A stretch of 34,696 bases of DNA, taken from the UHGV virus genome UHGV-0412376; one strand, written 5' to 3'. Shown in pieces: positions 4,385 through 34,467 of this stretch. This DNA comes from a virus. The notes under the pieces were generated by a model. The model did no database searches and was not told where the DNA came from. It was given only the letters and a program-made list of their open reading frames with translations. Position numbers and translations under genes: made by a program. The first letter of the stretch is position 1. Each line of letters opens with the position of its first letter.

Positions 4385-5257
4385 ATGAATAACGAAAAAC
4401 CTTATAAACCAAAATATGAATACAGGCAAGGACAACAGGCCCTTACCCTGTCAACCCCGAAAGAGCTTGCTGGCTTTTTAACCAGGTCAAAAACCTCCAT
4501 TGCCGCCGCTCTGCCGGCCCATCTCAACCCGGACCGTATGATTCGTCTCGCGGTAACTTGCTTTTCACAAAACCCAGCCTTGCACCGGTGTTCCGCTGTA
4601 AGTATCTTTTCCAGCTTGCTCATTGCCTCCCAGCTTGGGCTTGAGCCGGGAGTAGGCGGGCAGGGATATCTTATCCCCTACAAAGGTAAGTGCACCTTTG
4701 TTCCCGGCTGGCAGGGCCTTGTAGGACTGCTCAACAACACGGGCAGGGCTACCGCCTGGACGGGGGTAGTTTACGAGGGCGACCAGTTCCAATTTGAGCT
4801 TGGAGCCTATCCTATCCTCCGCCACATCCCCGGCATCAACTACGGGGATGAGGACAAAATGACATGGGCCTATGCCTGCGCCCGGGTTAACGGAGCGGAA
4901 ACCCCTGTCATTGAGGCATGGCCCATGGAACGCATCTGGCGCCACAGAGACGCACACAACGAGGTCGGAGAAAAGCATTACTCCTACAAAAACCGAGAAA
5001 TGTACGCCCGCAAGGTGGTTCTGCTGCAAGTTCTCAAATACATGCCGAAAAGTGTGGAAGTGGCAAATGCCATTGAAGTCTCCCATGCCGCGGAAACGGG
5101 GCGTGTCGTCAAAATCGACGACGGCGTTGTCATTGACGGCGAAATTGTATCGGAAGATGACCCCGGCATAGATGACTATCCGCTCGACCGTCAAGACCTG
5201 AACCCGACGCCGAAACCGGCCCCAGCCTCCGACCCCTCCACTCCAAACCTCCTTTAA
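4385..5257 (+). CDS. recT: RecT-family single-strand annealing recombinase.
   Basis: MIRLAVTCFSQNPALHRCSAVSIFSSLLIASQLGLEPGVGGQGYLIPYKGKCTFVPGWQGLVGLL is a RecT-family signature. It is followed by a YqaJ-type exonuclease. Confidence 0.8.
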   Translation: MNNEKPYKPKYEYRQGQQALTLSTPKELAGFLTRSKTSIAAALPAHLNPDRMIRLAVTCFSQNPALHRCSAVSIFSSLLIASQLGLEPGVGGQGYLIPYKGKCTFVPGWQGLVGLLNNTGRATAWTGVVYEGDQFQFELGAYPILRHIPGINYGDEDKMTWAYACARVNGAETPVIEAWPMERIWRHRDAHNEVGEKHYSYKNREMYARKVVLLQVLKYMPKSVEVANAIEVSHAAETGRVVKIDDGVVIDGEIVSEDDPGIDDYPLDRQDLNPTPKPAPASDPSTPNLL

Positions 5258-5261
5258 ACGC

Positions 5262-6248
5262 ATGAGCGAACAACTTCAAATCATCCCCCTGAATGTGAGC
5301 GCCAAAGGCGAAGTACTCTCTTCCAATCTTGACGAATTCCGCGCCTCGGTCAAAACCGTCCTGGACAGTATCAGTCTCACTCCTGAAACCGATGAAGAAT
5401 TCGGATTGGCTGAACAAAACGTCAAAATGCTCAAGGGCGCGGAAGATACCGTTAAGGCTGCCAAGGAAAAAGCCTTGAAGGATGCCGAGAGCCTCCATGA
5501 ATTCTTTGCCGCGCTGGACGAATCCAGTGAAGAAATCCGGCAAGCCCGGCTCACCCTGGAAAAGAAGATCGCCGGGGAGAAAGAGAAAATCCGCAATAAG
5601 CTAATCGATGACGCCCTTGCCCGCCTGGAATGCGCTCCCCATTTGAGGAAGAAATTATTTGGCGGTACAATGGCGGAATCCATCAAGAACAAGCGCACCA
5701 TTAAAAGCATTGAGGCCGCGCTTGATGCCGCCGTGGCAAAAGCAAACAAAGACATCACAACCAATCGTGAAATCATTTGTGAATTCATTGATTTGTACGG
5801 TGGCAACCTCGTGTTGGACGAAGACGAACTTGAAACGAAATCCACTATCTATGTTGAGGCTGAGCTGCGTCGCCGTCAGGATGTTGCCAAAGCCGCCGCA
5901 GAACGCGCCAGACTGGAGGAAGAGGCCCGAAAGGCACGGGAAGAAGCTCAACGGGCAAAAGCGGAATTGGAAGAACAGGGAAAACCTCCTGTCCCTCCGG
6001 CCCTCACATCCATCAACATGACCGCGTTTGACCAGGAACCGGTACAGGCTCCTGAAACATTCCCGGCTCCAAAGAGCGAATCAGAAGAATGGAGGCAATT
6101 CCAGGAATCCGTTTTTGAAGCCTTTGCAAAACTTAAGGATGCCCGAGAGAAGCTTACTCACCCCGCCAACAAAAGCCGCGTTGCCTATTTTGCTCAAGCC
6201 GTCAACGAGGCCTGGAAAGCCTGCATAGCGGAAGGAGGTGAGAAATGA
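5262..6248 (+). CDS. Coiled-coil phage protein associated with the recombination module, possibly DUF1351-like.
   Basis: K/E/A-rich coiled coil lying between recT and the exonuclease. There is no catalytic motif. Confidence 0.5.
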   Translation: MSEQLQIIPLNVSAKGEVLSSNLDEFRASVKTVLDSISLTPETDEEFGLAEQNVKMLKGAEDTVKAAKEKALKDAESLHEFFAALDESSEEIRQARLTLEKKIAGEKEKIRNKLIDDALARLECAPHLRKKLFGGTMAESIKNKRTIKSIEAALDAAVAKANKDITTNREIICEFIDLYGGNLVLDEDELETKSTIYVEAELRRRQDVAKAAAERARLEEEARKAREEAQRAKAELEEQGKPPVPPALTSINMTAFDQEPVQAPETFPAPKSESEEWRQFQESVFEAFAKLKDAREKLTHPANKSRVAYFAQAVNEAWKACIAEGGEK

Positions 6249-8608: not shown

Positions 8609-8933
8609 ACAATCAGCTTTTTACGAATATGGATGCGCAAAAATGGCACTCCAAATTAGAATAGGCAATATTCGGGATTTTGCACTAATTGCTTGCCGTA
8701 GATATTATAAGGATATGCTCAAGTCCGAAAGAAAACTTATATGTAATCAACATGCCCTTGGCTTCTTAGTTAAACATCTTCGAGAAAAGCGGGCTGCGTG
8801 CAGGGCGTGGGTGCATCCTATGCGAAGGAGATGCTCGAACTGTAAACATGAGCTAACGCAGTACAAGTTCTGCGCAGCCTGCGTCCATGAAGGATGGCCT
8901 GTTTACTGGGAACCGAGAAAGGAGGGGGAATGA
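8592..8933 (+). CDS. Hypothetical Cys-rich protein.
   Basis: ATG at 8592 with GAGG upstream. The C-terminal region CSNCKHELTQYKFCAACVHEGWP looks like a zinc-binding cluster. Confidence 0.45.
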   Translation: MKITPEQSAFYEYGCAKMALQIRIGNIRDFALIACRRYYKDMLKSERKLICNQHALGFLVKHLREKRAACRAWVHPMRRRCSNCKHELTQYKFCAACVHEGWPVYWEPRKEGE

Positions 8934-9400
8934 AAGCCATTCTTGACGCCTGTTGCGGCTCCCGCATGTTCTGGTTTGACCGCCACCACCCTGACGTGGT
9001 GTTCATGGACCGCCGGGAGGAAACGCACACGCTTTGTGACGGGCGAACCCTGGAAATCAAGCCGGACGTCGTCGGGGACTTCCGGGAGATGCCTTTCAGC
9101 GACGGGGCGTTTCGCCTTGTCGTGTTCGACCCTCCGCACCTGATTCACGCCGGGGAATCGTCCTGGCTGTCCAAGAAGTACGGAAAGCTGGACCGGAAGA
9201 CATGGAGGGATGATTTGAAGGCCGGCTTCCGGGAGTGTTTCCGGGTTTTGGAACCGGGCGGCGTTCTGGTGTTCAAATGGTGCGAGGATCAGGTTTCAAC
9301 CGCAGAAGTGCTGAAACTGGCCAGCCATGAACCTTTGTTCGGACACCGCCGCGGGAAGACCGTCTTCCTGGTATTTATGAAATCTACAACCCCCAACTGA
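8930..9400 (+). CDS. Small phage DNA methyltransferase carrying a DPPH variant of the catalytic motif.
   Basis: LDACCGSRMFWF resembles the SAM-binding motif I. VVFDPPH resembles motif IV (DPPY-like). RBS GAGGGGG precedes the ATG at 8930. Confidence 0.6.
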   Translation: MKAILDACCGSRMFWFDRHHPDVVFMDRREETHTLCDGRTLEIKPDVVGDFREMPFSDGAFRLVVFDPPHLIHAGESSWLSKKYGKLDRKTWRDDLKAGFRECFRVLEPGGVLVFKWCEDQVSTAEVLKLASHEPLFGHRRGKTVFLVFMKSTTPN

Positions 9401-9407
9401 CGCTTTT

Positions 9408-10409
9408 TTGATTATGGCCGGAGACTGGATCAAGGTTGAACACACGACGCCCGACAAACCGGAAGTGGTGAAGCTGGCAGGCATCCTTGGCATTGATCAG
9501 GATGCCGTGGTTGGCAAGCTTCTTCGCCTTTGGATTTGGGCCGATCAGCAATCCGTCTCTGGTAACGCCATCACCGTTACAAATTCGTTTCTCGACCGTC
9601 TCGTATTCTGCCCCGGTTTCGCCGCCGGGCTTGTCAAAGTCGGCTGGTTGAATGGACGCGAGGGCCTCCTTTCAATCCCCAATTTTGACCGCCACAACGG
9701 CCAAACCGCCAAAAATAGGGCCAATACGAACCGCCGTGTTGCGAATAGTAGAAAAGCTCATAATGAGCGAGTTACAAAAACATGTAACGAAAATGTAACG
9801 CTTGGAGCGTTACAAAAACCGTTACCAGAGAAGAGAAGAGAAGAGAATAAACAAGAAAATAATGCAGGGGGATATAACACGGTGGTTTGTAGCGAGCCGC
9901 CAACTGATCCTGCCTCCCCTATCCCGAACCGGGAACGCTTGAACGATGTCCGGGGGATTCGCTGCGCCGACAACCATGCGGACCTGGGATCTTCTCCCGG
10001 CGCTGCCCGGTTCGTGGCAGCGTGCCTGGACATCAATCCGTCCTGGGTCCGGACGATACCAACCGCCATTGAGACGGCGGCCGCGCTTGAGGCGTACCGG
10101 TCCGCGCAGGGGCGGGTGACGCCGCGGGATATGGAGATGCTCAAGGATTACTACGCCAGCGGCTTGACTCATGACCGGAGCAATAAGGCTTTTTGGAGGC
10201 CAGACAGCAGGCGCAAGTTCTGGGAGTGCTTCGGCGACGTTTTGACGCATGCCGACAGGTGGGCTAAGGAGACGCGTTGGAAGCCGGCAGCATCCCGCAA
10301 GAAACCGAAACCCGAAGAACCACGGCAGCCGGAAGGGCCCGTTGTGGATGTCGCGGACGCTGCGGCGGAGATCGCATCTCTTCGGGAGGAAATGGGACTG
10401 GGAGGATGA
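9408..10409 (+). CDS. Replication initiator / replisome-organizer-like protein with iterons embedded in its gene.
   Basis: N-terminus GDWIKVEHTTPDKPEVVKLAGILGIDQDAVVGKLLRLWIWADQQ...GLLSIPNFDRHNG resembles phage replisome-organizer N-terminal domains. An AT-rich iteron block lies at 9768-9864. Confidence 0.45.
   Translation: MIMAGDWIKVEHTTPDKPEVVKLAGILGIDQDAVVGKLLRLWIWADQQSVSGNAITVTNSFLDRLVFCPGFAAGLVKVGWLNGREGLLSIPNFDRHNGQTAKNRANTNRRVANSRKAHNERVTKTCNENVTLGALQKPLPEKRREENKQENNAGGYNTVVCSEPPTDPASPIPNRERLNDVRGIRCADNHADLGSSPGAARFVAACLDINPSWVRTIPTAIETAAALEAYRSAQGRVTPRDMEMLKDYYASGLTHDRSNKAFWRPDSRRKFWECFGDVLTHADRWAKETRWKPAASRKKPKPEEPRQPEGPVVDVADAAAEIASLREEMGLGG
9768..9864. promoter_or_regulatory. Putative phage origin of replication: iteron-like GTAACG/CGTTAC repeats plus an A-rich tract, inside the replication gene.
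   Basis: GTTACAAAAAC occurs twice, TGTAACG occurs twice, and there is a perfect palindrome GTAACGC-ttgga-GCGTTAC. (AAGAG)x3 follows, then an A-rich run. This low-GC patch sits inside a roughly 60% GC gene. Confidence 0.4.
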
Positions 10410-22773: not shown

Positions 22774-23226
22774 ATGACTACTAATAATCAATGCAATCAT
22801 GCCGAGGCGATAGCCAAGGATTTTTACAGGGTAGTTTCCGAGGATAACGGCGGCGGCTGGAAGTCCTGGGAAGATTTAACCGATTCACAGCGGTCCGCGT
22901 TTGTGCGATTGGCGCAGCAAGCCCTGCCCATTATTGGCAGGCATGCGCTGGGGGATGTCCGTGACTATCTCGGTATTAAGGCTGCCGGCAAGTCTAGCTG
23001 GTGGGAAAAGGCCCTGTATGCCGCCGGAGCAGTTATTGCCGGGGCTATCCTTGGCGGCTTGGGAATGTCCCTCTCCGGCTGCGGGCACTCCGTGGACGTG
23101 ACGCCGGAAAAGACGGTGGTCTGTAAGGACGGCTCCTGCCTGGTGCTGGAACCGGGGCATATCTCCTACAGTCAGTCCCAGCCGGAAACGGATGTTCCTC
23201 CCATCGTGCAAACCATCAAGAAATAA
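22774..23226 (+). CDS. Membrane protein with a central TM helix; a candidate lysis-cassette component.
   Basis: TM segment ALYAAGAVIAGAILGGLGMSL. It lies upstream of the spanin-like protein and the amidase. Confidence 0.35.
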   Translation: MTTNNQCNHAEAIAKDFYRVVSEDNGGGWKSWEDLTDSQRSAFVRLAQQALPIIGRHALGDVRDYLGIKAAGKSSWWEKALYAAGAVIAGAILGGLGMSLSGCGHSVDVTPEKTVVCKDGSCLVLEPGHISYSQSQPETDVPPIVQTIKK

Positions 23227-23230
23227 CGCC

Positions 23231-23482
23231 ATGTGTAAGCTCTCCGAAGTACCGGCGCGGTTCCTGGATTTTGCCAAGGCTTCCCCCCTGCTTGCCTGCG
23301 TCATACTCTCGCTGGTCATTTGCGGTGCCGCCTGCTGGTACATCGGAGATGTCATGGGGCACCACAATGACAGGCTTTGCGACCTGATGACCATGCAGAC
23401 ACAGGCCCAGGTGGAGACCGCCAAAGTGCTCCAACTGCTTGCCGTCAGAATCGAAAACATAGAAAGAAAACTGGAAAAGTGA
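23231..23482 (+). CDS. Type-II membrane protein with a periplasmic coiled coil; i-spanin-like or holin-like.
   Basis: N-terminal TM ASPLLACVILSLVICGAACWYIG is followed by a coiled coil (QAQVETAKVLQLLAVRIENIERKLEK). Confidence 0.4.
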   Translation: MCKLSEVPARFLDFAKASPLLACVILSLVICGAACWYIGDVMGHHNDRLCDLMTMQTQAQVETAKVLQLLAVRIENIERKLEK

Positions 23483-23529
23483 ATAAGCTGCTGAACCCTT
23501 CCGTTCTGCTTCCCTTGATAGGGTGCGTG

Positions 23530-23631
23530 ATGGGCATTGCTTTTGCCGCATTCGACGACACGGTGGCGGGTGTTGCGGCGTTCTGTTTTCCCATCGCTAC
23601 TATGGTACTCTTGCGAGCATCGGGAAACTGA
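23530..23631 (+). CDS. Hydrophobic mini-protein of 33 aa in the lysis block.
   Basis: MGIAFAAFDDTVAGVAAFCFPIATMVLLRASGN, located directly upstream of the amidase. Confidence 0.3.
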   Translation: MGIAFAAFDDTVAGVAAFCFPIATMVLLRASGN

Positions 23632-23693
23632 CCAACTGTAAAGTTTTTCTTACAAGTTCAACAATATTAACAATCAACCATTAAAGGAGAATA

Positions 23694-24227
23694 ATCAGGA
23701 AAATAGCCATTGATATAGGCCACGCCAACAACACCGGAACCCGCGGAAACGGGCTTGAAGAACACGCCGTCGTCACGACTATCGCCGAACGCCTCGCCCC
23801 CATGCTGGAACGGCTGGGAGCCCGGGTGGACGTGATTGACTTCCCCAAGATGACCAATGCCCAGGACTTGAGCGATACCATCAAGGCCGCCAACGAAGGA
23901 GGCTATGACTTCGGAATTTCATTGCATTGCGATTCGGCCGACAATCCCCAGGCTCATGGCGCTCATGTATGTTTCTACCCGGGAAGCGTTAAAGGAAGCC
24001 GGCTTGCCATATGCATCGCGGAACCTCTTTCCCGGCTGCTGCCCGGACGGGCCAACACTGTGCAGTCGCGCCCGGGACTGGCCGTCCTGAAAAAGACCCG
24101 CTGTCCGTGGGTGCTCTGCGAATGCGGCTTCATCACCAATCCTGAAAACGCCTCTATTTTGAAGGACCATCCCGGACGCATTGCCGAAGCCATTGCGGAA
24201 GGGGTGAAGGACTACCTCAACCAGTAA
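23694..24227 (+). CDS. N-acetylmuramoyl-L-alanine amidase (Amidase_3) endolysin with no canonical start codon.
   Basis: IAIDIGHANNTGTRGNG...GISLHCDSAD...GFITNPEN are Amidase_3 motifs. A strong SD (AAGGAGA, 23684-90) is present, but no ATG/GTG/TTG lies in frame before the conserved N-terminus. The candidate start is ATC at 23694. Confidence 0.75.
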   Translation: MRKIAIDIGHANNTGTRGNGLEEHAVVTTIAERLAPMLERLGARVDVIDFPKMTNAQDLSDTIKAANEGGYDFGISLHCDSADNPQAHGAHVCFYPGSVKGSRLAICIAEPLSRLLPGRANTVQSRPGLAVLKKTRCPWVLCECGFITNPENASILKDHPGRIAEAIAEGVKDYLNQ

Positions 24228-24233
24228 CCGCCC

Positions 24234-25748
24234 ATGACTTACCAGGCCCCCTACGCGGCGCGCTACGTTTCCGCCGCCGGCAACCAGATCCAGCTGCTCA
24301 ACCTCTGGGACGATACGCCGGAGCCTCCCCGCTTCGGCGGGTCCATGGAGGCATTTGAAACGTCGCTGGTAGACGGACCGCGAGCGTTCGCGCAGGGGCT
24401 GGGAAGCGCTGTGGAGCAGCGCACCATCGCGTTTTACCGCTGGTTTACGGATTATCAGGATATGGCCTCCTATCAGGAGAACCTGGCGTTGTGGCTGGCC
24501 AGCAATCAGAACGGCTATCTGTACCTGCAGTTCGCCGAACAGCCGCAATGGCGGTTTGCCGCCGTCATCACCGGCTACCAGTTTGAGACGGAGAACTTCG
24601 TTCCTCCGCCGTCTCCCGAAGACGGCTATCTGTGCCTGCTGGTCACGCTGACCATGACGGTCACCGACCGGACCCCGGACAATTCCAACTGGATATTCAG
24701 CGTGACGCCCTCTTCTTTCGACGTTCCCGTCAAGGGAGGCGAATACACCGTTAATGTGGAATCGTCGTTCAGCCCTGGACCGGTAGGTCAGGGGTGGCAG
24801 ATTGCCGACGTTTCCGAAGGATTAACCGTTTCCGATATCGTCAACGGCAACAACGGGACATTCAAGGTTATCGTCGCGGCCAATGAAGGAGACCAGGACA
24901 GGACCATGTTGCTCCAGGTCATTCAGGACGGAACAGGACAGGCTGTTGAGGTTGAATTTCGTCAGCTTCAACCCTCTTACTCATTCAGCCTTGCTCCAAC
25001 CCAGGTACAGGTTCCCGTTACTGGCGGAAGCTACCAGGTCCAGGTGACTTCCTATTATGACCCGGGAGCAGTCAGCGTTGACTGGACGCCCAATTCTCCC
25101 AGCTCTTCCGTTGTCATTTCCGATATCACGAACGGAAATAACGGGTCATTCACGTTAACCGCGGCGCCCAATGAAGGAGCGGCCGGCTCCGTCGTCGTTT
25201 CCGCGACACAGGCGGATTCCGGTTTAAAACAGACAATCCGCGTATTGAGGGCAGGACTGGTCACCCGAAATCATCAGCTTCCCCCGCCCGGAGGGGAATA
25301 CTCGGATAATCCGATGAGTTATTCCTCATGGAGGTTTATTCCCTCGGACGTTTATCCGGACTTCCCGGAAGGCAACCCCGAAGGAAAGGGACTGACGCTG
25401 CAGGAAATCATCACGACGAACCCCACCAGCTCCAATTCCGGCACGTTAACGCTTTACCGGGTGGAAAACGGGTCTGCCTCTCTTCTGGCGACCAGCAGCG
25501 AGGCGGTTTCCACCGGAGAGGGCGGAAACGTGAAATGGACGTTTTCTCCCGGCGTGGAAATCCGCTCGGACTGGCAGCTGGTCGTGGAAAACCAGAACGG
25601 AATCTATGAGCAGCATGCCATGCTGGAAAGCCCCCAGTCATTTGACGGTCTCGGAGACGAGGCCTACCCCGCGGCAGCCACGGCGGCCGGGCGTACGTTC
25701 GGATTATCCCTCGTCATCCGCTACACTTCCACCGAATACCCATCTTAA
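24234..25748 (+). CDS. Structural protein with two tandem Ig-like/BACON-like domains.
   Basis: The two internal repeats are FSVTPSSFDVPVKGGEYTVNVESS...SDIVNGNNGTFKVIVAANEG and FSLAPTQVQVPVTGGSYQVQVTSY...SDITNGNNGSFTLTAAPNEG. It lies upstream of the chaperone-like gene and the tape measure. Confidence 0.55.
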   Translation: MTYQAPYAARYVSAAGNQIQLLNLWDDTPEPPRFGGSMEAFETSLVDGPRAFAQGLGSAVEQRTIAFYRWFTDYQDMASYQENLALWLASNQNGYLYLQFAEQPQWRFAAVITGYQFETENFVPPPSPEDGYLCLLVTLTMTVTDRTPDNSNWIFSVTPSSFDVPVKGGEYTVNVESSFSPGPVGQGWQIADVSEGLTVSDIVNGNNGTFKVIVAANEGDQDRTMLLQVIQDGTGQAVEVEFRQLQPSYSFSLAPTQVQVPVTGGSYQVQVTSYYDPGAVSVDWTPNSPSSSVVISDITNGNNGSFTLTAAPNEGAAGSVVVSATQADSGLKQTIRVLRAGLVTRNHQLPPPGGEYSDNPMSYSSWRFIPSDVYPDFPEGNPEGKGLTLQEIITTNPTSSNSGTLTLYRVENGSASLLATSSEAVSTGEGGNVKWTFSPGVEIRSDWQLVVENQNGIYEQHAMLESPQSFDGLGDEAYPAAATAAGRTFGLSLVIRYTSTEYPS

Positions 25749-25762
25749 CAGAATAATCCATC

Positions 25763-26044
25763 ATGAACGAACAACAACAAAACGGAATAGAACGGCTTTT
25801 CGTCGAATTTGCCGAAGAGTGCGGCAAGAACCCGAACCTGAACCAGGCGGTGCAGGAATTGAAGGAAAGCGTCTTTGCTGCCTCTCAAGCCGCCGGCGTC
25901 GATCCTTCCCATGCCTTCGGCGTCATCATCCGCGATATGATGATTCTGGAATCCTTGCAGAAACGCGTGGATGAATCCCGAAACGCCCTCACCGCAGGGA
26001 AACTGCCCGCTTTCGTCATCGAAGAAGCCCGCGCTCAACGATAA
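25763..26044 (+). CDS. Putative tail assembly chaperone.
   Basis: 93-aa acidic ORF immediately upstream of the tape measure. Confidence 0.35.
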   Translation: MNEQQQNGIERLFVEFAEECGKNPNLNQAVQELKESVFAASQAAGVDPSHAFGVIIRDMMILESLQKRVDESRNALTAGKLPAFVIEEARAQR

Positions 26045-26062
26045 CCCTCCACATCTACCACC

Positions 26063-28423
26063 ATGGCAACCAAGAAAGAAATCGAAATCACCCTTAAATC
26101 ATCCTTTGACTCGAAGGGCGTGGAAGAGGCCCGCAAGCAAATTGAATCCCTTAGGAACGCCGGGAAGCCATCTTCGGGGCAAAATACCAATACCAATGCC
26201 GATGACCAGGCCAAGGCGTTGGAAAAAGAAGCCCAGGCGGAAGAACGGAGGCAGAAGAAAGCCCAGGAAGCAGCTGACGCTATCGAACAATCCAGACGAA
26301 GGGAAAAAGCGGCCTTAAATGAACTTGTGTCTGAATTGGAAAAATATCAGGCAGCCCTGAAAAAGGCGACGCAGCAGGAAAATCATCCCGACCGTCTAAA
26401 AGCTCTGAAGAATATTGATGAGCTGGAGAAAAGGATTTCCGCATTGACAAGGGCACAGGAACGGGAAGCGCAGGCGGCGGAAAAAGCAGCGCGAGCGGAA
26501 GCGCAGGCGGCGGAAAAAAGCCGAGCTCTCAACCAGTCCACTCAACAACTTGATAAGGGGAGCCAGCAGGCAACCCGGAGCGTGAAGAATATGGGGCAGG
26601 GAATGCTGCAGGTTGCCTATTTCATGGATGACGTGCAGTATGGCATCAAGGGCATCCTGAACAATATTCCTGGTCTTGTGATGGGCTTCGGAGGCGGGGC
26701 AGGGCTGGCCGGGGCTGTCTCCATTGCCGTGTTAGCCGGCGCGAAGCTTTACGAGTGGATGGGAAACACGGAAGCAAAATCCAAAGAACTCGCTAAGGCC
26801 CTTGAACAACAAAATGAAGCCATTGAGGAATCCCAGAAAATCGTCGCGTCCTTCAATAATGAGGCGGCTTTAAAGACGTCCAATGATTTGACGGCAAAAA
26901 TAGCAGGAAACCGAAAAGAAGAAGCCCAGGCATTAAAAGAATCTGTACGGGAGCAGCAGCGTTTGCTGGACCTGCAATCAAAGATTCTGGACAATCAGGA
27001 TCAGGCGGATTTGTTGAAACTGGAAACTGATTACTATAGCGGGGCGTTCGGCGATCCTGAAAGTTTTTCCGCGCGTTTGTTCTTTGAAGGCAAACAGGAA
27101 GACATCAGACTTCGAGCCCGTGCCCGGCATCGACAAGAACAGGAAGAATCCGCCAGAATCAATGTATCTAACGCGGAAAGGGATTTAGCGTCAAAAACCG
27201 AAGCCACCAACAGAAACAGCGAACGTTTGGGAGGATTGCAGGACCAGAATATTTTATCCTACCAGGAACGGGAAAAGCTCAATGGCGAAATCCTTAATGC
27301 GGAAAAACAAATATTTGATAACTTGCTTTCTATAGCCAAAACCACACGGAATGCCGCTGAACTAACAGGAAATTTTAAGGGATTTGGAAGAATATCAGAC
27401 GACGATCTTCAAGGTTGGATTAAGCAATTAATTGAAAATGGAGGTAATACAAGTGTTTTAAAAAATACATTTTTTCAAGGAGTTAGTGCACATAATTCCA
27501 ACGTCTTTAGAACGGCTCCAAAGTTAATGGAAGACGTTCTATCCATAGGAAATGGCAGGGTGCAGTTAGATCGCCTGAACGCTTTAAGAAAACAAAGGAC
27601 GGATTCTGACAACGCGCTTGTCGATGCAGGATATGACGTCAGCACGGATGATGCGTTGCGTGAAGCATATAAGAACAGAGACAAAGCGGTAGAACAGGCG
27701 CAGGAATCGCTTAAAAAGGCGATAGAAGATCAAACGGAAGCGGAGAAATCTTTAACTACAAGCACGCAACAGCTTGAAGAAGTCCGAAAAATAAATGCTT
27801 CCGAAGAAAAAATTGACGAAGCGCAGCGGGAGAGGAACGAGGCTGTGGAACAGCAAAAAAGGATTGTCCAGGCACAGAAGGAGAATGAAAACGCTATCAA
27901 AGATCAGATACGGGAAAGGGAAAACGAAGTCCGTGAACTGAAAAAGGAAATCTCCAGGCTCAAAGAGCGAACCAAGAACCAGAGGGACAAACGTGACAAT
28001 ATCATCGAGAACGTTAACCTGGCCGGATTCAGCAAATCGTTGACCGACGCCTTGTCAAGCCCCGATAGAGATGTCAGCGGAAGAGCGCGGGAACGAAAGT
28101 CCAATATTAATGAAGCCTATAGCGCCATCATCAGGTACATCAAAGACGCTTTCAAGGATAACAGGGTCACCGAGAACGAAATGGAGTTTCTCTCGAAAAA
28201 ATTAATGCAGGAACTGTCCTCAAGAGGCGAGAATAAAATCACCTATGCACAAACGCTTGATTTAGTGAAACGCATCATTGCCCTGGTAGAAAAGGGATCT
28301 TCCGACGGAAATCAATATCGTGCCGCGATCAAATCCATGGAGGCACGAGTTCAACGGCTCGAAAAAGAGTCCCAGGCACAGAAAACCGGTCTCAATATGG
28401 TGGCAGGCTGGTTCGTATCTTGA
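26063..28423 (+). CDS. Tape measure protein.
   Basis: 786-aa coiled-coil-rich protein with a central hydrophobic/glycine segment (GLVMGFGGGAGLAGAVSIAVLAGAKL). It also contains an internal tandem DNA repeat (GCGCAGGCGGCGGAAAAA x2). Confidence 0.75.
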   Translation: MATKKEIEITLKSSFDSKGVEEARKQIESLRNAGKPSSGQNTNTNADDQAKALEKEAQAEERRQKKAQEAADAIEQSRRREKAALNELVSELEKYQAALKKATQQENHPDRLKALKNIDELEKRISALTRAQEREAQAAEKAARAEAQAAEKSRALNQSTQQLDKGSQQATRSVKNMGQGMLQVAYFMDDVQYGIKGILNNIPGLVMGFGGGAGLAGAVSIAVLAGAKLYEWMGNTEAKSKELAKALEQQNEAIEESQKIVASFNNEAALKTSNDLTAKIAGNRKEEAQALKESVREQQRLLDLQSKILDNQDQADLLKLETDYYSGAFGDPESFSARLFFEGKQEDIRLRARARHRQEQEESARINVSNAERDLASKTEATNRNSERLGGLQDQNILSYQEREKLNGEILNAEKQIFDNLLSIAKTTRNAAELTGNFKGFGRISDDDLQGWIKQLIENGGNTSVLKNTFFQGVSAHNSNVFRTAPKLMEDVLSIGNGRVQLDRLNALRKQRTDSDNALVDAGYDVSTDDALREAYKNRDKAVEQAQESLKKAIEDQTEAEKSLTTSTQQLEEVRKINASEEKIDEAQRERNEAVEQQKRIVQAQKENENAIKDQIRERENEVRELKKEISRLKERTKNQRDKRDNIIENVNLAGFSKSLTDALSSPDRDVSGRARERKSNINEAYSAIIRYIKDAFKDNRVTENEMEFLSKKLMQELSSRGENKITYAQTLDLVKRIIALVEKGSSDGNQYRAAIKSMEARVQRLEKESQAQKTGLNMVAGWFVS

Positions 28424-28456
28424 CATTTTTGGATAATCACGTATCAGAATGGGGAC

Positions 28457-29047
28457 ATGTATTATTTCTATACGTCCGAGGGACAAACGGAAGGTCCGGT
28501 TTCGATGGAGGTGCTGGAAGATTATTTCTCCCAGAAAAAGATCAACGCGAAAACCATGATTTTTCAAGAGGGGGGGCAAGAATGGGAAGAGTTCGAGAAA
28601 GTGGTAGCAAAATATCGTAGTAATCAACTACCGTCATATTTAACTGGCATCAAATGGATAGGGATAGTAGCATTAATTGTTGTTATTGTTGCCATCATTG
28701 GTTATGTAGGATTAGTAGGCTTATTGTTAGAGATAGGTGTTGTTTGCCTTTTAATCATTGGTGCAATAAGAATCTATAAAATGAAACCAGCAGCCACCGA
28801 AAAACAAAAACAAACGAGTCAGACAACCCTTATAGGTTATTATTTCCCTATGATAGGGGGATTTGTAGCTGTTGCTGGAATCATCGGATTTTTTGTTTGT
28901 ATAGCAAATGAATTGGTCGGTTTGTCCATTGCCTGTCTTTTATCTGGATTCTTTTCGTTAATGTTTTTCCTGTGGATGGGGCAAATTTACGACCGGATTG
29001 CGGAATGCGTCCATATCTTGAAAAACATGCAGGACAGGAATAAATAG
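28457..29047 (+). CDS. Membrane protein with an N-terminal DUF4339/GYF-like domain and four TM helices, encoded in an AT-rich moron.
   Basis: N-terminus YYFYTSEGQTEGPVSMEVLEDYFSQKKINAKTMIFQEGGQEWEEF matches the DUF4339 pattern (YY..G...GP.....L....G......W.eG...W). Four hydrophobic helices follow. The region is about 40% GC. Confidence 0.6.
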   Translation: MYYFYTSEGQTEGPVSMEVLEDYFSQKKINAKTMIFQEGGQEWEEFEKVVAKYRSNQLPSYLTGIKWIGIVALIVVIVAIIGYVGLVGLLLEIGVVCLLIIGAIRIYKMKPAATEKQKQTSQTTLIGYYFPMIGGFVAVAGIIGFFVCIANELVGLSIACLLSGFFSLMFFLWMGQIYDRIAECVHILKNMQDRNK

Positions 29048-29098
29048 AACCTTAACCTTTTTACAAGCAGCAGGAACCACGACATCACCATCAATGAT

Positions 29099-31255
29099 TT
29101 GCTAGCTCTCAAACCGTCGAGCCTCAATCACGCGCAAAGAAGCTTTTCCACCTCCACCATTACCGCGGTTTATCCCGTCCGCACCTTGGACGAGGTCTTG
29201 CCCTTCCAGCAATTCGACACCGTCACCATCTCCCAAAACGGGAACACCATTCTTGCGGGCCTCGTTTCCAGCATCGAAAAGACCTACAGCGGTTCATCCC
29301 GTGCCTGGAAAATCGTCTTTTCCGATCCCTGGTATTACCTGGACAACTGCTTTGCCCTGGATTCCGAATGGAAGCCGGTCTTTTCGATGTGGCAAAGCAC
29401 CGGCGGCGGGAATGAAATCATTCCTAAAATAAGCATTTCCTCCGCCCTTTCCCGGGTGCTGAACCTGGCCAAACACCACCCCGCGGACTACGAACTGCGG
29501 ATCAGCGACGACAAAATGCTGATCCCGTGGAACGCCTCATGCGACACCCTTGGAAGTCTGCTCCAATCCATCCGCCACTGGTCGCCCCGCATGGTCACGT
29601 ACTACGACTACAGCGGCGCACGCCCCAAGCTGATCATCACGGACTATGACGTCCTGACGCCTATCTCCCTGCCATTGCAGCCGACGACGACAATCAAGTC
29701 CATGGATGTATCCCTGGTCCCCCGGGCCGACCTCGTGCCTCCCTGCGTGGCGATTGTCGCCGAAACCACCGGAAGCAACGGCTATCGCGTCTCTTACCTG
29801 TCCAAATACCCGGAAGACGGAGACCCGACCTTGCCGCATTCCATCGTTTACCGAACGTCCGTAGACTTCTATTATTCTAAGTTTAATTCTACAGGGGAAC
29901 CGGTAGAAGATCCTCAACCGGTACAGGGAACCAGGGCCGGCAGCCTGTCCTACCAGCGCATGAAAGTGACGGGGACCCGGATTGACCAGAACGACATGAT
30001 CAACAGTTTCTGGAAGAATCATTTCCCCTGGATGAAAGACGTTGGAGCCATTGCGGCCTATGACCCAACACCGCAAATCACCGGGAAGCCCTGGGACGGA
30101 ACGGAGGAAGACAAACCGAAAGGCTATAATATCACGGCCACGGGCTATGAACTGACTGACGGTCAAATTCATACCAAATCCATCCGGCCGCAGTGGTGCA
30201 ATGCCACCATCAAGCAGCGTCTCGCCATCCCGGAAAGCGCCCCTGCCAAGTGGCGGGAGAAATTCAAGAATGTGGGGACCTTGCAGGGTGTGCCCTGCTT
30301 TTGGGAAGAATTCTCGGTGGATCTGGTCACCATGGACCGCCCCTTTGCGAGCTACCCCATCGACGGCATCTACAACGGGGAGCAGCCCTCCAACGGGCCG
30401 GAAGAAGGGGAATCGCCCCAACCCTCGGAAGGCGTTCCCTATGGGGACATTGCCAAAACGGTATGGGAATCCATGCAGGAATTGCCGTGGGACGGATCTA
30501 TTTCCTTTGTCGCGCTTGGCGAAGCGCAGACGCGCCAATACATTGGCCGGCGCGTCTCGCTGCTGGGAGGAAACCCCGCTTGGCAGAACATCAACACCAT
30601 GATTCAGACGGTGAACCGCGACCTGCAGACCAACGTCATTACGTTGTCCTATGGAGCTTTGAACTATTTAAGCATTGAAGACTGGATAAGATTGAGGAGC
30701 ATCAACGCCAAATCTCGCGAGTCTTCCACGCTGGAAAACATGCAGGGCGCGCCGGAATCGACGGAATACGCCTTTGACCCCAAGCCGGAATCTCCGACCA
30801 TCAGCCAGCATATTACCAAGTCCACCGGAGAAGCCACGCCCGCGCCGGAATACGGCTTCCAGGTGCGGGTGCAGAAAGATACGGAGGGAGCCATCACCGG
30901 GGCGCAGATGAAGCCCGGCGCGCTCTACCTGAACGGCTCGCTGCTCGGCAAATACCCGCAGGGGGGCGGTTCCGGTTCCTCGTGGGTAACTATCCCCCAA
31001 ACCAGCGGGGAAGTATGGCTCAACGTCCACTTTGACAAGAACGCCAAATTGACGGGCGTGGATGTCTCGGGCATCCCGGGCCCAGTCTATCCGATTCCTC
31101 TTATGGACTACTCTTTAGGAGAGCCTCCTGATCTCAACTACGATTATGCTTTTCAAATTGCCGACATTGAAGACGACCAGGTGACGCAGTACGCGCTGGG
31201 CATGATTCAGGTACCCGTCTTCGGAGGCACCTTCTACCCTTACGGACCAGCTTAA
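29099..31255 (+). CDS. Large distal tail / tail-tip (host-specificity) protein.
   Basis: 718-aa ORF after the tape measure, with a TTG start. It is beta-rich and ends in a Gly-rich C-terminus. Confidence 0.55.
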   Translation: MLALKPSSLNHAQRSFSTSTITAVYPVRTLDEVLPFQQFDTVTISQNGNTILAGLVSSIEKTYSGSSRAWKIVFSDPWYYLDNCFALDSEWKPVFSMWQSTGGGNEIIPKISISSALSRVLNLAKHHPADYELRISDDKMLIPWNASCDTLGSLLQSIRHWSPRMVTYYDYSGARPKLIITDYDVLTPISLPLQPTTTIKSMDVSLVPRADLVPPCVAIVAETTGSNGYRVSYLSKYPEDGDPTLPHSIVYRTSVDFYYSKFNSTGEPVEDPQPVQGTRAGSLSYQRMKVTGTRIDQNDMINSFWKNHFPWMKDVGAIAAYDPTPQITGKPWDGTEEDKPKGYNITATGYELTDGQIHTKSIRPQWCNATIKQRLAIPESAPAKWREKFKNVGTLQGVPCFWEEFSVDLVTMDRPFASYPIDGIYNGEQPSNGPEEGESPQPSEGVPYGDIAKTVWESMQELPWDGSISFVALGEAQTRQYIGRRVSLLGGNPAWQNINTMIQTVNRDLQTNVITLSYGALNYLSIEDWIRLRSINAKSRESSTLENMQGAPESTEYAFDPKPESPTISQHITKSTGEATPAPEYGFQVRVQKDTEGAITGAQMKPGALYLNGSLLGKYPQGGGSGSSWVTIPQTSGEVWLNVHFDKNAKLTGVDVSGIPGPVYPIPLMDYSLGEPPDLNYDYAFQIADIEDDQVTQYALGMIQVPVFGGTFYPYGPA

Positions 31256-31263
31256 CAAACACC

Positions 31264-32019
31264 ATGATCAGAATCTATCTATTCACCTATGCCGGAGACG
31301 CGGATGAAGCCCTAGTTTGCGTACAATGCGCAGCCGCGGCTCTGCCTGAAGCTGTCATTACGGTTGTGGACGACAGCGCCGCTCCGCTTCCTGAACGCGT
31401 CAGATCCGTCCTTATGTTAACCGGGGCAAGGTATTGTCAAACCGGCTGGACAAGGAACGGCAACCTGCGCGGCCCGGAATGCGTCCGGGGCATCATTTCC
31501 ACGCTGGCCGGGGAAGCGGAGGATGAAGACGTCATCGTCAAAATCGACTCCGACACGCTCCTGTTGTCGGGCGGCTGGATCCTCGACATGCAGCGCAACG
31601 GGCTGGCGTTGCACGCCTCCGGCTACCAGGTCCCCAGCCACCCGTCCGAACGCTCCGCCTATGGGCCGTGTTACGCGATCAGCGGACGGGCGGCCAGACT
31701 GGCGGCTGAGGAACTGATGCAGGCTGACATCCCCGCGCTTGCTCCCGAAGACCTGACGATCTGCCGTACCATCCAGGGGCTCTTTCCCCAGGAGCGGATC
31801 AGGCTTGACGAACCTTGGACGCCCTTCAACAGGGAAGGGAAGTGGACAGCCTGGAACTGGTTCAGCATCGCCGTAACGCCGAAAAAATACGCCGAATTCT
31901 GGATGGTCACCTTCGGCAACCCGCGCCCTACGAACATTCCCAAATCCGAGCGCGCCCGCGCCATGGACGCCTTGTACCGTTACCGGTTCCACAAGGAAGA
32001 AGACGGATCATCTTGTTGA
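31264..32019 (+). CDS. Glycosyltransferase-like protein (GT-A fold, GT8-like N-terminus, DxD motif); a lysogenic-conversion candidate.
   Basis: MIRIYLFTYAGDADEALVCV resembles GT8 N-termini, and VIVKIDSDTLLL looks like a DxD motif. It lies between the last tail gene and the integrase, a typical moron hot-spot. Confidence 0.35.
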   Translation: MIRIYLFTYAGDADEALVCVQCAAAALPEAVITVVDDSAAPLPERVRSVLMLTGARYCQTGWTRNGNLRGPECVRGIISTLAGEAEDEDVIVKIDSDTLLLSGGWILDMQRNGLALHASGYQVPSHPSERSAYGPCYAISGRAARLAAEELMQADIPALAPEDLTICRTIQGLFPQERIRLDEPWTPFNREGKWTAWNWFSIAVTPKKYAEFWMVTFGNPRPTNIPKSERARAMDALYRYRFHKEEDGSSC

Positions 32020-32052: not shown

Positions 32053-33240
32053 CTAACGGGCCAGTCCGACGGCAATCTTGCTCATGGCCTCCTGAACGTC
32101 CGCCGAATCCGGGCGGAAATACACCCGTTCAATCTCTTCGGAGTCGTGGCCGACGATGAAGCGGCACAAATCCGGGGACACACCGGCCAGGCGCAGGACG
32201 GTCACGGCGGTCGCCCGTAGGCTGTGGAAGCTCTTTTCCGAAAGCCGGTGCCGGTCGCCTCTCACTTCCCCGGGCATCTCTCGGATGATTCCGTACGTTT
32301 TCAATAACGTCGTGAACTCCGTGGAAAGCTTGTCGGAACGTCCGCCGGCATGGGCATGGCGAAGCGCGGCCAGGGGAAACACATAATCGTTCACCCGGTT
32401 GACCAGACGCCTTTCCAGAACCTCTTTCAAGGGTTGGATGATCGGCTTGTTCATGCGGCGCCGGCTCTTCTGCGTGGTCATGAACAGGAAGGAGTTCTTC
32501 AGGTCAATCTGGTCCCATTTCAGCGTCGCCAGGTCTCCGAGGCGCTGTCCTCCGGTGTAGAGGCACACCCGCACCAGATCCGGCCATTCATCCGGGAACC
32601 GTTCAATGATGGTGTTCACTTCCTCCATGGTGAAGGCGCCGCGCAACTGCTTTTCCGCCTGGTGGTCCGCCCGGGAAGGCATGACGCCCCGGAACGGATT
32701 CCGGGAAAGGATCTCCCGGTCTACAGCGATATTGAACGCGGTGGACAGCGTGGACACATAGCGGATGACGGTTCCGGCGGAAACGCGCTCCATTTCCGTT
32801 TCTACAAAATCCTTCGCCATCCCTTTATTCAGGGCGGCCAGCGGCATATTCCGCCGGTCCCCCAGGAACGCCAGAAGCCGGCGGACGGCCATGCCGTCCC
32901 GCTCATAGGCCCGCTTCTTGTTTTTCCTCCCGTCCAGCCAGTCAAAAAGGAACCGCGTCACCGTCATGCCGTTCATGGTGGCTTTCAGCACGCCGGCCTG
33001 GTCCCCGGCAATGGCCTTCACCTTGTCCAGGTCAAAAACCCCGTACCGGGCTTCTTTCTCCATCTCCTGGGCCACCAGCCGCGCCCGTGCTTCATTCTGG
33101 GACATGACCGATTTCTTATTGGCTCCCGGAAGAAGCGCCTTGGGAACCACGTCGATGCCGGTGGTCTTCCGAAGCTCTTTGCCGTCCAGGGAGCGGAAGA
33201 CGGCCACCCATTTGTTGTTGCGTTTGATGATGCCTGCCAT
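32053..33240 (-). CDS. int: Tyrosine-type phage integrase.
   Basis: C-terminal catalytic signature: ...LGDLATLKWDQIDL..., FHSLRATAV (HxLR) and GHDSEEIERVYFRPD (catalytic Tyr). It occupies the terminal position on the opposite strand. Confidence 0.9.
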   Translation of the reverse strand: MAGIIKRNNKWVAVFRSLDGKELRKTTGIDVVPKALLPGANKKSVMSQNEARARLVAQEMEKEARYGVFDLDKVKAIAGDQAGVLKATMNGMTVTRFLFDWLDGRKNKKRAYERDGMAVRRLLAFLGDRRNMPLAALNKGMAKDFVETEMERVSAGTVIRYVSTLSTAFNIAVDREILSRNPFRGVMPSRADHQAEKQLRGAFTMEEVNTIIERFPDEWPDLVRVCLYTGGQRLGDLATLKWDQIDLKNSFLFMTTQKSRRRMNKPIIQPLKEVLERRLVNRVNDYVFPLAALRHAHAGGRSDKLSTEFTTLLKTYGIIREMPGEVRGDRHRLSEKSFHSLRATAVTVLRLAGVSPDLCRFIVGHDSEEIERVYFRPDSADVQEAMSKIAVGLAR

Positions 33241-33656: not shown

Positions 33657-33986
33657 TTAAACATATTTTTGAACTGATTTTACCATGTACCCAACGAGGG
33701 TTGATAAAAATCCAGTAGTCATGATGTACCGTTTCTCTTCTACAATCCAGCACCATTTTTCAGGGAGAACGTAATTTAAAGTAAGCGTCGCCAATGCTAC
33801 TATGCAACAAATAACAGCGGTAACCAGCACCCATTTCCAAGCCTGATGCACAGTATGCTTTTTCTCTTTTTCCAAAGCTACTTCATCTCTTTTAGTTTCC
33901 TCTTCTATTTTTTCTATTGTCGGCACAGGCGGAGCCTTGTCCGAATTTACCAAGGCTTTGATCTGGTCATCTAGTTTGGTAGTCAT
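33657..33986 (-). CDS. Small membrane protein; putative toxin partner of the Panacea-domain protein (PanT-like).
   Basis: 109 aa with a charged N-terminus, then the TM helix WKWVLVTAVICCIVALATLTLNYVL and a second hydrophobic segment. Its ATG lies 4 nt after the upstream stop, giving translational coupling. Confidence 0.5.
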   Translation of the reverse strand: MTTKLDDQIKALVNSDKAPPVPTIEKIEEETKRDEVALEKEKKHTVHQAWKWVLVTAVICCIVALATLTLNYVLPEKWCWIVEEKRYIMTTGFLSTLVGYMVKSVQKYV

Positions 33987-33990
33987 TTTT

Positions 33991-34467
33991 TCAAGAAGCA
34001 GAGGGGGTCAGCATTCGGTCAAAATAAATAGCCATTTGCCAGAGGGGGATACGCGAATACTTTTTTTTCTCCCAAGCAGCAGCCCAAGGGGAGTTTGGTT
34101 GGTGAGAAAGTTCCACTAACTGGGGAGCACTCAATTTCCCAAGCTTGTCTACAACATTTTTGATTACATTTTTAGCGTCTTCATCGTCTGTAATCGCGTC
34201 AGGAGATGCTAAAAATCCGGTGATTGGGGTATCTCCCAAATGTTTCAGTTTTTTATAAAGTTCAGGAATGACGGGGCCATAAGTCCATGCTTGGATTTCT
34301 TCTGTAAATAGAGGGTGTTCTAATTGTTTCAGGGCGAATCCCTGCACGAAATAAGCCAGCTTCTGAATTTTCATGTTAGTTACAGATAAGCCTTGCTGCC
34401 AAGCTTCGGTTAATATCTGGTTGGCTATTGCCTCGATGCTATAGGATTTATATTCTATTTTGCACAT
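33991..34467 (-). CDS. Panacea-domain (DUF4065, SocA/PanA-like) antitoxin-type protein.
   Basis: N-terminus ANQILTEAWQQGLSVTNMKIQKLAYFVQGFALKQLEHPLFTEEIQAWTYGPVIPELYKKLK matches the Panacea pattern (..a.....g..vt..KLqKLlYyaqg..L.....pLf.e.ieAW.yGPVvpe.Y). Confidence 0.65.
   Translation of the reverse strand: MCKIEYKSYSIEAIANQILTEAWQQGLSVTNMKIQKLAYFVQGFALKQLEHPLFTEEIQAWTYGPVIPELYKKLKHLGDTPITGFLASPDAITDDEDAKNVIKNVVDKLGKLSAPQLVELSHQPNSPWAAAWEKKKYSRIPLWQMAIYFDRMLTPSAS

Follow-up and report, generated by a model that had tools for sequence, protein, structure and literature searches.

A GYF-domain membrane protein gene that co-varies with the tape-measure-like gene of Akkermansia phages: a candidate exclusion gene

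The UHGV virus genome UHGV-0412376 (34,696 nt, analysed over its full length, here called the window, to which all window coordinates refer) carries at 28457-29047 a gene for a small membrane protein with an N-terminal GYF domain. This open reading frame (ORF) and its homologues, which we call GYF-TM, are the subject of the present analysis. Its gene content, together with a DNA identity of 86% to phage DTMo-2021a of Akkermansia, which is carried by strain NBRC 114322, identifies the window as a temperate phage or prophage of this genus. Its genes include a Mu-type portal, a protease/scaffold, a large terminase, a collagen-like fibre and an Amidase_3 endolysin, and it also codes for a RecT/YqaJ/RuvC recombination module and a Bro-N/ANT antirepressor. 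The local gene order is amidase, a 504-amino-acid (aa) protein, a 93-aa protein, a 786-aa coiled-coil protein for which we use the working name tape-measure-like, GYF-TM, a 718-aa protein, a 251-aa protein and the integrase, and it is the same in every related prophage examined. Window-type Akkermansia phages are referred to as type 1 and a second Akkermansia phage type as type 2, while L and P numbers denote related loci and homologous proteins, respectively. The features of the gene, including its transmembrane (TM) parts and its content of G and C (GC), and of the unit to which it belongs are the following:

28457..29047 (+): GYF-TM gene, 196 aa, class A long four-helix form (from ORF, Pfam, dN/dS and homologues)
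28463..28594 (+): GYF_2 domain, residues 3-46, predicted to be cytoplasmic (from Pfam, AF2 and Foldseek)
28622..28780 (+): extra TM hairpin, residues ~56-108, confined to long class-A forms and absent from the 145-149 aa forms; GC 32.7%
28829..28981 (+): core TM hairpin, residues ~125-175, in all alleles (from hydropathy, AF2 and invariant residues)
28982..29044 (+): charged C-terminal cytoplasmic helix (QIYDRIAECVHILKNMQDRNK), nearly invariant within class A
26806..29047 (+): low-GC allelic cassette, consisting of the tape-measure body (from codon ~248) and GYF-TM (from blastn boundaries, GC and identity correlations)
29048..29098 (+): conserved intergenic sequence at the right cassette boundary, ~45 nt before the 718-aa gene, kept in all classes

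The GYF-TM ORF starts with an ATG at 28457, its stop codon ends at 29047, and it encodes 196 aa. Residues 3-46 match the Pfam family GYF_2 (PF14237, formerly DUF4339) with E=3.3e-8 and 33.6 bits, which is above the gathering cut-off of 25.8 bits, as are the representatives of the allele classes A, B and C described below (29-41 bits). The same family is found in 13 out of 13 close homologues. A first AlphaFold2 (AF2) model on 14 sequences, with a predicted local distance difference test score (pLDDT) of 62, was too poor for a fold search and was replaced by a model on 28 homologues, in which residues 1-50 have a pLDDT of 82-87 and a beta-beta-alpha-beta-beta-alpha topology. The best Foldseek matches of this model in the PDB are all GYF domains, namely those of yeast Smy2, human GIGYF1/2, Myxococcus xanthus GltJ, an Arabidopsis GYF protein and CD2BP2 (3k3v, 3fma, 7ruq, 7rup, 7z3c for GltJ, 1wh2 and 4bws_C). 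The probabilities are ~1.0, and the E-values, 5e-3 to 0.9, are modest because the domain is small.

The hydropathy profile has two hydrophobic stretches, residues ~67-107 and ~125-175, and either of them is long enough for a TM hairpin, which gives four helices in total. In the core hairpin the periplasmic turn consists of just two residues (NE), and the AF2 helices span residues 122-150 and 154-194 with a pLDDT of 72-75. The hairpin turns hold 0-1 Lys/Arg while the flanking segments are rich in these residues, and by the positive-inside rule an N-in/C-in topology is therefore predicted, with the GYF domain in the cytoplasm. As the number of helices is even, this topology is kept with or without the extra hairpin. 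The first-pass annotation, made from the letters alone, had proposed a GYF-like DUF4339 domain, cytoplasmic and N-terminal, fused to four TM helices, and the Pfam, structural and hydropathy results agree with it on each of these points. GYF-TM is thus predicted to be an inner-membrane-anchored cytoplasmic adaptor with almost no periplasmic exposure.

The ratio of nonsynonymous to synonymous substitution rates (dN/dS) amounts to 0.24 for class A, to 0.26-0.30 for class B and to 0.15-0.19 for class C. Purifying selection in three allele classes means that GYF-TM is not a chance ORF. Within the protein, the most constrained segment is the C-terminal helix, with a ratio of nonsynonymous to synonymous polymorphism (pN/pS) of 0.22, followed by the GYF domain with 0.27, and the linker is the least constrained with 0.63.

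The GC content of GYF-TM is 38.9%, with a value at third codon positions (GC3) of 0.41, compared to 54.2% for the window and to 56.4% (GC3 0.71) for the downstream 718-aa gene, and all GYF-TM classes lie between 35 and 41%. The GC content had initially been put at some 20% below that of the neighbours. A clear drop is seen towards the downstream side (38.9% vs 56.4%), but not towards the upstream gene, the adjacent part of which has 44.9%. The drop there is small because the low-GC tract begins inside that gene, at ~26806.

Relatives were collected both via the conserved 718-aa neighbour and via GYF-TM protein homologues. Among the non-redundant type-1 loci, 40 of 40 carry a GYF+TM gene in the slot before the 718-aa gene, 39 of them with one copy and one with two. 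These genes fall into at least three allele classes, which are mutually 20-27% identical:

Class A (the window type): one hairpin in the short form (145-149 aa), and an additional one, inserted after the GYF domain, in the long form (195-203 aa)
Class B: 162-198 aa; the linker is long, variable and rich in Lys and Glu
Class C: 130-145 aa; the hairpin is glycine-zipper-like; the type found in phage DTMo-2021a

Invariant across the classes are Y3, G13, P14, L20, I29, T33, E38 and G39, with W43 nearly so, as well as G141 and G164, that is, one glycine per core helix, and W173 at the end of the last helix. The extra hairpin of the long class-A form is carried by the window, L009, L017, P0002, P0004 and P0006, and the DNA similarity of the window to short-form loci is broken at 28620-28822/28832 (blastn).

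A profile search of an index of 5.8 billion proteins gave 37 members of the GYF-TM family. In an exhaustive hidden Markov model (HMM) search of 1.84 billion representatives, 5 were found at E<=1e-30, and beyond these the matches are mostly unrelated proteins having GYF_2 only, although further forms of the family, among them a two-GYF variant, were also met in this search. The homologues are named in the databases only as 'DUF4339 domain-containing protein' or 'hypothetical'. GYF-TM is frequently overlooked or truncated at the start by automatic gene callers, for which its AT-rich and atypical codon usage is the probable reason, and the database counts therefore underestimate the family. Two seeming exceptions turned out to be of this kind. 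P0156 and P0157 (112-114 aa), considered as GYF-less relatives, are start-codon miscalls whose full ORFs include the GYF domain, and the apparently empty slot in L055/L056 is a missed gene call, with a class-C gene present in L055 at 5607-6014.

Full-length GYF-TM genes also occur in tandem pairs, C-type then B-type, in L060 (4575-5498) and L061, and P0158 and P0237 share contigs. P0158 (216 aa, C-type) has two GYF domains in series. A divergent member at 5024-5479 of L052 combines a B-like GYF domain with a C-like hairpin and may thus have arisen by recombination that joined the cytoplasmic part of one allele class to the membrane part of another. No orphan copies in prophage remnants were seen; for the commonest allele, 10 of 10 contexts are intact tail modules. 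A scan of GTDB genomes gave a single distant chromosomal GYF match, in a metagenome-assembled genome of Verrucomicrobiales and in a non-phage context. A paper on the salt-tolerance gene stlA was considered as a functional link and dismissed, since the DUF4339 protein there is the neighbouring gene 8 and not stlA (PMC3861447).

GYF-TM was also compared with the genes on its two sides. These genes are:

26063..28423 (+): tape-measure-like protein, 786 aa, coiled-coil-rich (A/E/K/L/Q/R), with one hydrophobic Gly-rich segment at residues ~202-230
29099..31255 (+): 718-aa protein, S/P/G/T-rich, putative tail-tip/host-recognition protein, outside the variable cassette

When the window is compared to class B and C phages by blastn, the DNA similarity ends at 26775-26806, corresponding to codon ~240-248 of the tape-measure-like gene, just past the hydrophobic segment, and returns at 29039-29054. 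On the right, the conserved ~45 nt directly follow the stop codon of GYF-TM in class A and class B phages. The 2.2 kb cassette between these boundaries (26806-29047) has a GC content of 43.3%, against 55-57% on either side. Over 30 distinct loci, the identity of GYF-TM correlates with that of the C-terminus of the tape-measure-like protein with a Spearman coefficient of 0.76, with that of its middle part with 0.56, and with that of the equally adjacent 718-aa protein with only 0.42. Between phages of different GYF-TM classes the 718-aa protein mostly retains an identity of ~88-96%, with 72% in a single divergent clade, which itself holds both B and C alleles. Judged from these comparisons, the variable unit is the tape-measure body plus GYF-TM, swapped as one piece.

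The pairing can also be followed in other phage lineages. In Chambord, an inducible prophage of strain YL44, a 187-aa class-B GYF-TM adjoins the tape-measure gene on the opposite strand, in convergent orientation and at the prophage end, and the 42-bp gap between the two genes contains a terminator-like hairpin. The gene therefore needs its own promoter and forms an independent unit. The Chambord tape-measure body is of the B type, being 38-39% identical to type-1 class-B bodies (E~1e-83) and matching A-type bodies only in a short stretch of coiled coil, and its GYF-TM is also of the B type (43%, E=3e-48). In L060 the body is of the C type, the next gene is a C-type GYF-TM, and the additional B-like copy comes after it. 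The allele pairing of body and GYF-TM thus persists through deep divergence and inversion. In Chantilly, which is likewise carried by A. muciniphila YL44, a 150-aa gene for a GYF domain and two TM helices lies downstream of the tape-measure gene, on the same strand and after a 42-aa ORF. Adjacency to the 3' end of the tape-measure gene is thus a conserved feature that defines the family in three Akkermansia phage lineages, and the position after the tape measure, described as unusual at first, is not so in these phages.

Type-2 phages have homologues of the 718-aa protein (27-28% identical), of the 251-aa protein (63%) and of the tape-measure-like protein, the gene of which is the last of the operon, after and not before the 733-aa and 245-aa genes. 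GYF-TM is facultative among them, and some relatives of Chambord are entirely without it. The type-2 loci L053, L057 and L059 have an A-type body and no GYF ORF within 6 kb, so that GYF-TM is, as far as can be read from these loci, dispensable for at least some phages with a homologous tape measure. This dispensability favours an accessory role over a structural one.

In the same three loci the tape-measure gene is followed directly by an opposite-strand gene for a 351-aa coiled-coil protein that has TM segments at its ends, and in L053 and L057 it is, in addition, directly preceded by an Abi_2 abortive-infection gene, again on the opposite strand. Accessory genes of the membrane and defence kind seem to have a hot spot on either side of the tape-measure gene. 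The coordinates in L053/L057 are:

4641-5651 (-): Abi_2 gene
8637-9692 (-): gene of the 351-aa membrane protein

The identity of the two flanking proteins was also considered. The upstream one had been labelled as a tape measure and the downstream one as a tail tip, and neither the 786-aa nor the 718-aa protein has a match in Pfam, PHROG, NCBIfam or PDB sequences. For the tape measure there is indirect support. Namely, the Chambord counterpart was annotated by its depositors as 'tail length tape measure protein' via HHpred, the N-terminal 346 residues of the Chambord tape measure are 96% identical to the L059 protein, and the L059 body is in turn 38% identical to the window protein. This chain indirectly supports the 786-aa protein as the tape measure, while the tail-tip label found no backing in those searches. 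The first label is not settled either, because the length varies among close relatives (562-887 aa, all in Akkermansia and all called 'hypothetical') and the position of the gene differs in type 2.

Some alleles of the tape-measure-like gene differ by an insertion in the N-terminal part:

26152..26527 (+): extra coiled-coil insertion, in some alleles only

It comprises 376 bp, is in frame and encodes an Ala/Glu/Lys/Gln-rich coiled coil (AQAAEKAARAEAQAAEK repeats). In blastn alignments it appears as a gap against L001, L002, L013, L018 and L028, and the alignment is continuous in L017. The proteins accordingly fall into length classes of 615-666 and 769-812 aa, and the insertion accompanies the long four-helix GYF-TM mostly, but not strictly. 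A proline-rich ORF in an alternative frame (25971-26318) was considered as a frameshift product and possible GYF ligand and was rejected; it lies largely in the insertion, a stretch that many relatives lack.

GYF-TM had also been described as a moron, that is, as an inserted accessory gene. Of the features given by Hendrix and Juhala, the deviating base composition is found in type 1, while no promoter or terminator of its own was found, and the gene is not present in some close relatives and absent in others, the slot being universal and hypervariable (40/40 loci). On this reading of the sequences, GYF-TM lacks two of the three moron features in type 1, and the Chambord homologue is moron-like.

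We now consider what the protein may do. The hypothesis that fits best is that GYF-TM is a cognate inner-membrane immunity or superinfection-exclusion protein directed against the matching tape-measure DNA-entry conduit, and we put its probability at roughly 0.45. In this mechanism, the variable body of the tape-measure-like protein, the product of the preceding gene, would have GYF-TM as its cognate partner. Residing in the membrane of the carrier cell, it would recognise the matching tape measure of an incoming phage with the same cassette and prevent a productive channel from forming across the inner membrane, so that the DNA would stay out. Phages could escape by means of an altered tape-measure body, and subsequent replacement of the linked exclusion gene would give rise to co-diversifying allele pairs. 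The physical interaction between the two proteins, the expression in the lysogen and the exclusion phenotype are all inferred here.

Exclusion by blocked DNA injection had been named as a candidate role already in the first-pass annotation, and the case is strengthened by the co-variation of GYF-TM with the tape-measure body and by the opposite-strand position in Chambord. The exclusion mechanism accounts for the adjacency of the two genes, the sharp boundaries of the cassette, the deep classes under purifying selection, the pairing across lineages, the stacking of copies, the separate unit in Chambord and the dispensability in type 2. A more specific version was also considered, in which the two genes form a specificity cassette of toxin-immunity-like logic that sorts Akkermansia phages into mutually non-excluding 'entry groups', with the GYF domain reading the incoming tape-measure tip at the inner membrane face. 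We regard this version as somewhat unlikely.

Several observations weigh against an exclusion role. The slot gene is present in 100% of the type-1 phages, which is odd for an accessory exclusion gene and fits an essential lytic role too. In the window and in all type-1 phages it sits inside the late structural operon, and a scan of its flanks in the window found neither a promoter nor a terminator, which is a weak negative since only the sigma-70 consensus was used. A TTGACA that overlaps the tape-measure stop codon, followed after 19 nt by CAGAAT, was considered as the promoter of a leaderless transcript and rejected, being present in class A only, with non-canonical spacing, and not in B or C; nor is any motif upstream of GYF-TM shared across the three classes. 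The convergent orientation in Chambord would argue for expression in the prophage, whereas the late-operon position in the window would argue against it. The periplasmic loops have only 1-9 residues, and contact with the conduit could therefore take place only within the membrane or at its cytoplasmic face. On reading the sequence of the tape-measure-like protein, which was not done systematically, no proline-rich GYF ligand was evident. None of the known defence models in PADLOC-DB gives a credible match for GYF-TM. Finally, the co-variation of the two genes could partly be simple linkage in one recombination module.

It is instructive to compare GYF-TM with known systems. Prophage proteins known to block the entry of DNA are small and lie in the inner membrane, and it is the conduit protein of the incoming phage that determines their specificity (PMC3594210, PMC10883804). 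The small inner-membrane protein gp15 of HK97 is encoded in the tail operon beside the tape-measure gene and blocks genome entry, with a specificity that depends on the tail and tape-measure region of the incoming phage (PMC3594210, PMC10883804). Both are small proteins of the inner membrane, by prediction in the case of GYF-TM, and both genes adjoin the tape-measure gene and have a GC content unlike that of the neighbours. However, the gp15 gene precedes that of the tape measure, is a transcription unit with a promoter and a terminator of its own and occurs sporadically, whereas GYF-TM is encoded downstream, is universal in type 1 with no detectable signals of its own, has a cytoplasmic GYF domain and co-varies with the tape-measure body. 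A Pfam scan of GYF-TM at E<=0.1 gave GYF_2 and spurious sub-threshold matches in the TM region only, with no homology to YebO/gp15. Sequence searches of the PDB with the tape-measure-like, GYF-TM and 718-aa proteins likewise gave nothing meaningful, and a PADLOC match to HEC-01B in the GYF region (E=1.2e-3) was discarded as spurious, HEC-01B being a TOPRIM-domain protein.

SieA of phage P22 is a protein of 162-164 aa with several TM helices that blocks the DNA-delivery conduit. It occurs as three types less than 30% identical to each other, has a conserved cytoplasmic motif, and is escaped by mutations in the C-terminal regions of gp16 and gp20 (PMC10883804). It resembles GYF-TM as a multi-TM prophage protein of the inner membrane, of similar size and with deeply diverged sequence types. 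It differs in that its gene lies apart from those of the ejection proteins, that it lacks a GYF domain and that the types tested are alike in specificity, whereas the classes of GYF-TM, from which the FxRYPxEAxxFNK motif of SieA is absent, are physically and evolutionarily coupled to the conduit gene. The prophage envelope protein Ltp of Streptococcus phage TP-J34 also targets the tape measure, and tape-measure changes overcome its exclusion (cited in PMC10883804). Unlike GYF-TM, it is a secreted lipoprotein outside a Gram-positive membrane, encoded in the lysogeny module and having neither a GYF domain nor TM hairpins.

For the domain itself, the nearest characterised case is GltJ of M. xanthus, whose GYF domain binds a proline-rich sequence via a beta-sheet and does not require the canonical G-Y-F residues (PMC11135422). 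Both proteins have the GYF fold (7z3c) and a cytoplasmic GYF domain tethered to a membrane module. GltJ is, however, a large gliding-motility protein with a ZnR domain, a long linker and periplasmic parts that is not phage-borne, and its ligand AglZ is without a counterpart here. The earlier statement that no function has been characterised for this architecture is therefore correct for the phage protein, which is uncharacterised, but too broad for the architecture, since a GYF domain with a membrane module is typical in bacteria and GltJ has been studied.

The logic of the proposed pairing is that of pore-forming colicins and their immunity proteins. The latter are small multi-TM inner-membrane proteins encoded beside the toxin gene, often on the opposite strand, which are cognate-specific, co-diversify with the toxin and protect the carriers against the same agent coming from outside. 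They belong to a bacteriocin system and have no sequence similarity to GYF-TM, and the analogy is thus one of logic only. By the same analogy, the tandem stacking of different GYF-TM alleles may be likened to immunity gene arrays. Membrane exclusion or immunity proteins directed at a conduit would be of a known kind, while the adaptor domain and the explicit two-gene co-diversifying cassette would be new here.

The main rival is that GYF-TM serves the tape measure in the lytic cycle, either as a membrane chaperone or anchor made late that guards against premature insertion, or as a packaged part of the conduit that is ejected together with it. Such a partner would be expected to lie, as GYF-TM does in type 1, within the late operon and among structural genes. 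The gaps to these are short, 33 bp on the upstream side and 51 bp on the downstream side, and neither a promoter nor a terminator was detected. The occurrence in 40/40 phages, the tight allele pairing with the tape-measure body and the purifying selection on the cytoplasmic domain and the C-tail are also consistent with this role. The type-2 phages with a homologous A-type body and no GYF gene within 6 kb are difficult to reconcile with this role, as is the Chambord gene, which lies on the opposite strand and outside the late operon. Moreover, the protein may have 2 or 4 helices and 1 or 2 GYF domains, and the gene 1 or 2 copies, a variability that is unusual for a stoichiometric structural part, and an integral membrane protein with two or four helices would be awkward virion cargo. 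We therefore consider this alternative unlikely, although it deserves to be taken seriously.

Another option is that GYF-TM acts on the host as a lysogenic-conversion or host-physiology factor, the GYF adaptor recruiting a proline-rich host protein and altering the Akkermansia envelope or signalling, while its linkage to the tape measure would be due to hitch-hiking at a site of frequent recombination. Bacterial GYF domains are indeed protein adaptors located N-terminal to membrane modules and enriched in Planctomycetes-Verrucomicrobia (PMC11135422), the low GC3 is consistent with horizontal exchange, and the Chambord gene at the prophage end on the opposite strand would suit such a factor. 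This explanation is nevertheless improbable, as it leaves unexplained why, in three lineages, the gene is always found directly at the tape-measure 3' end and why the class pairing holds across an inversion and ~40% sequence divergence, and no copy standing apart from an intact tail module turned up among the contexts examined. A role in lysis timing, as an oligomerising late membrane protein of the holin, antiholin or pinholin kind, can be set aside as very improbable, since the likeness to holins in size, two-/four-helix N-in/C-in topology, charged C-tail and extreme diversity, and the glycine-zipper-rich hairpins of class C, are offset by a distance of 4.2 kb to Amidase_3, by better holin and spanin candidates directly upstream of that endolysin, and by the co-variation with the tape measure, which would be left unexplained.

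These candidates and the other features around the cassette are:

22774-23226 (+): 150-aa ORF with a TM segment and an LSGC lipobox-like motif, candidate lysis gene
23192-23482 (+): 96-aa ORF with an N-terminal TM segment and a coiled coil, i-spanin-like, candidate lysis gene
23377-23631 (+): 84-aa two-TM ORF, holin-like, candidate lysis gene
23802-24227: Amidase_3 endolysin, 4.2 kb from GYF-TM
25763..26044 (+): 93-aa gene in the putative chaperone position, syntenic in all type-1 loci, no family match
32053-33240 (-): integrase, part of the temperate-phage gene content

The ORFs at 22774-23631, directly upstream of Amidase_3, are likely a lysis cassette. Several relatives, among which L003-L006 were compared with the window, have, between the holin-like gene and the amidase, a gene for a 360-aa MethyltransfD12 DNA methyltransferase, which the window (~23632-23801) is without, and this gene is a true present/absent moron in the same operon as GYF-TM. 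The 504-aa protein (24234-25748, +) contains two internal ~75-aa repeats, seen as DNA self-similarity between 24831-24891 and 25117-25179, with a pattern that by eye is Ig-like or BACON-like, and shorter variants of 252-414 aa are found in relatives. It may be a tail tube protein, a decoration protein or one that binds mucus. The 251-aa gene (31264-32019, +) always follows the 718-aa gene and is the better conserved of the two in type 2 (63% identity vs 28%). Its N-terminus (IYLFTY...VVDDS) looks by eye like that of a GT-A glycosyltransferase, and no Pfam, NCBIfam, PHROG or PADLOC model matches it.

Beyond the integrase, within 33657-34467 (-) of the window, there is a gene with a SocA_Panacea domain (158 aa, an antitoxin-type domain), adjoined by one for a 109-aa membrane protein with a sub-threshold CrgA match. 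The two are probably a toxin-antitoxin-like pair at the integration site, and the pair is also present in L070. In one host genome, a gene with a SNIPE/T5orf172 domain lies beside the prophage integration site (L069, 10091-10372); the SNIPE family has recently been described as a membrane-bound nuclease that cleaves phage DNA during injection (title of PMC13190303).

A literature search gave no paper that joins GYF domains with phage exclusion, superinfection or tape-measure genes, and no virion morphology or proteomics for these phages was found. Should the exclusion mechanism be correct, GYF-TM would represent a new family of exclusion proteins and the first function for a phage GYF_2 domain, and the allele classes would provide a readable specificity code in the competition among gut phages. 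The same mechanism would account for the fact that, in prophages otherwise 88-95% identical, no part varies as much as the tape-measure gene. Even as a partner in the lytic cycle, a dedicated membrane protein that co-evolves with the tape measure would be new. The classes A, B and C, single or stacked, constitute natural allele swaps for experiments. Akkermansia muciniphila is a health-associated gut bacterium, few of its phages have been characterised, and the GYF_2/DUF4339 domains of bacteria are widespread and almost unstudied. If the pairing is functional, it would mean that the DNA entry of A. muciniphila phages is subject to an allele-specific exclusion.

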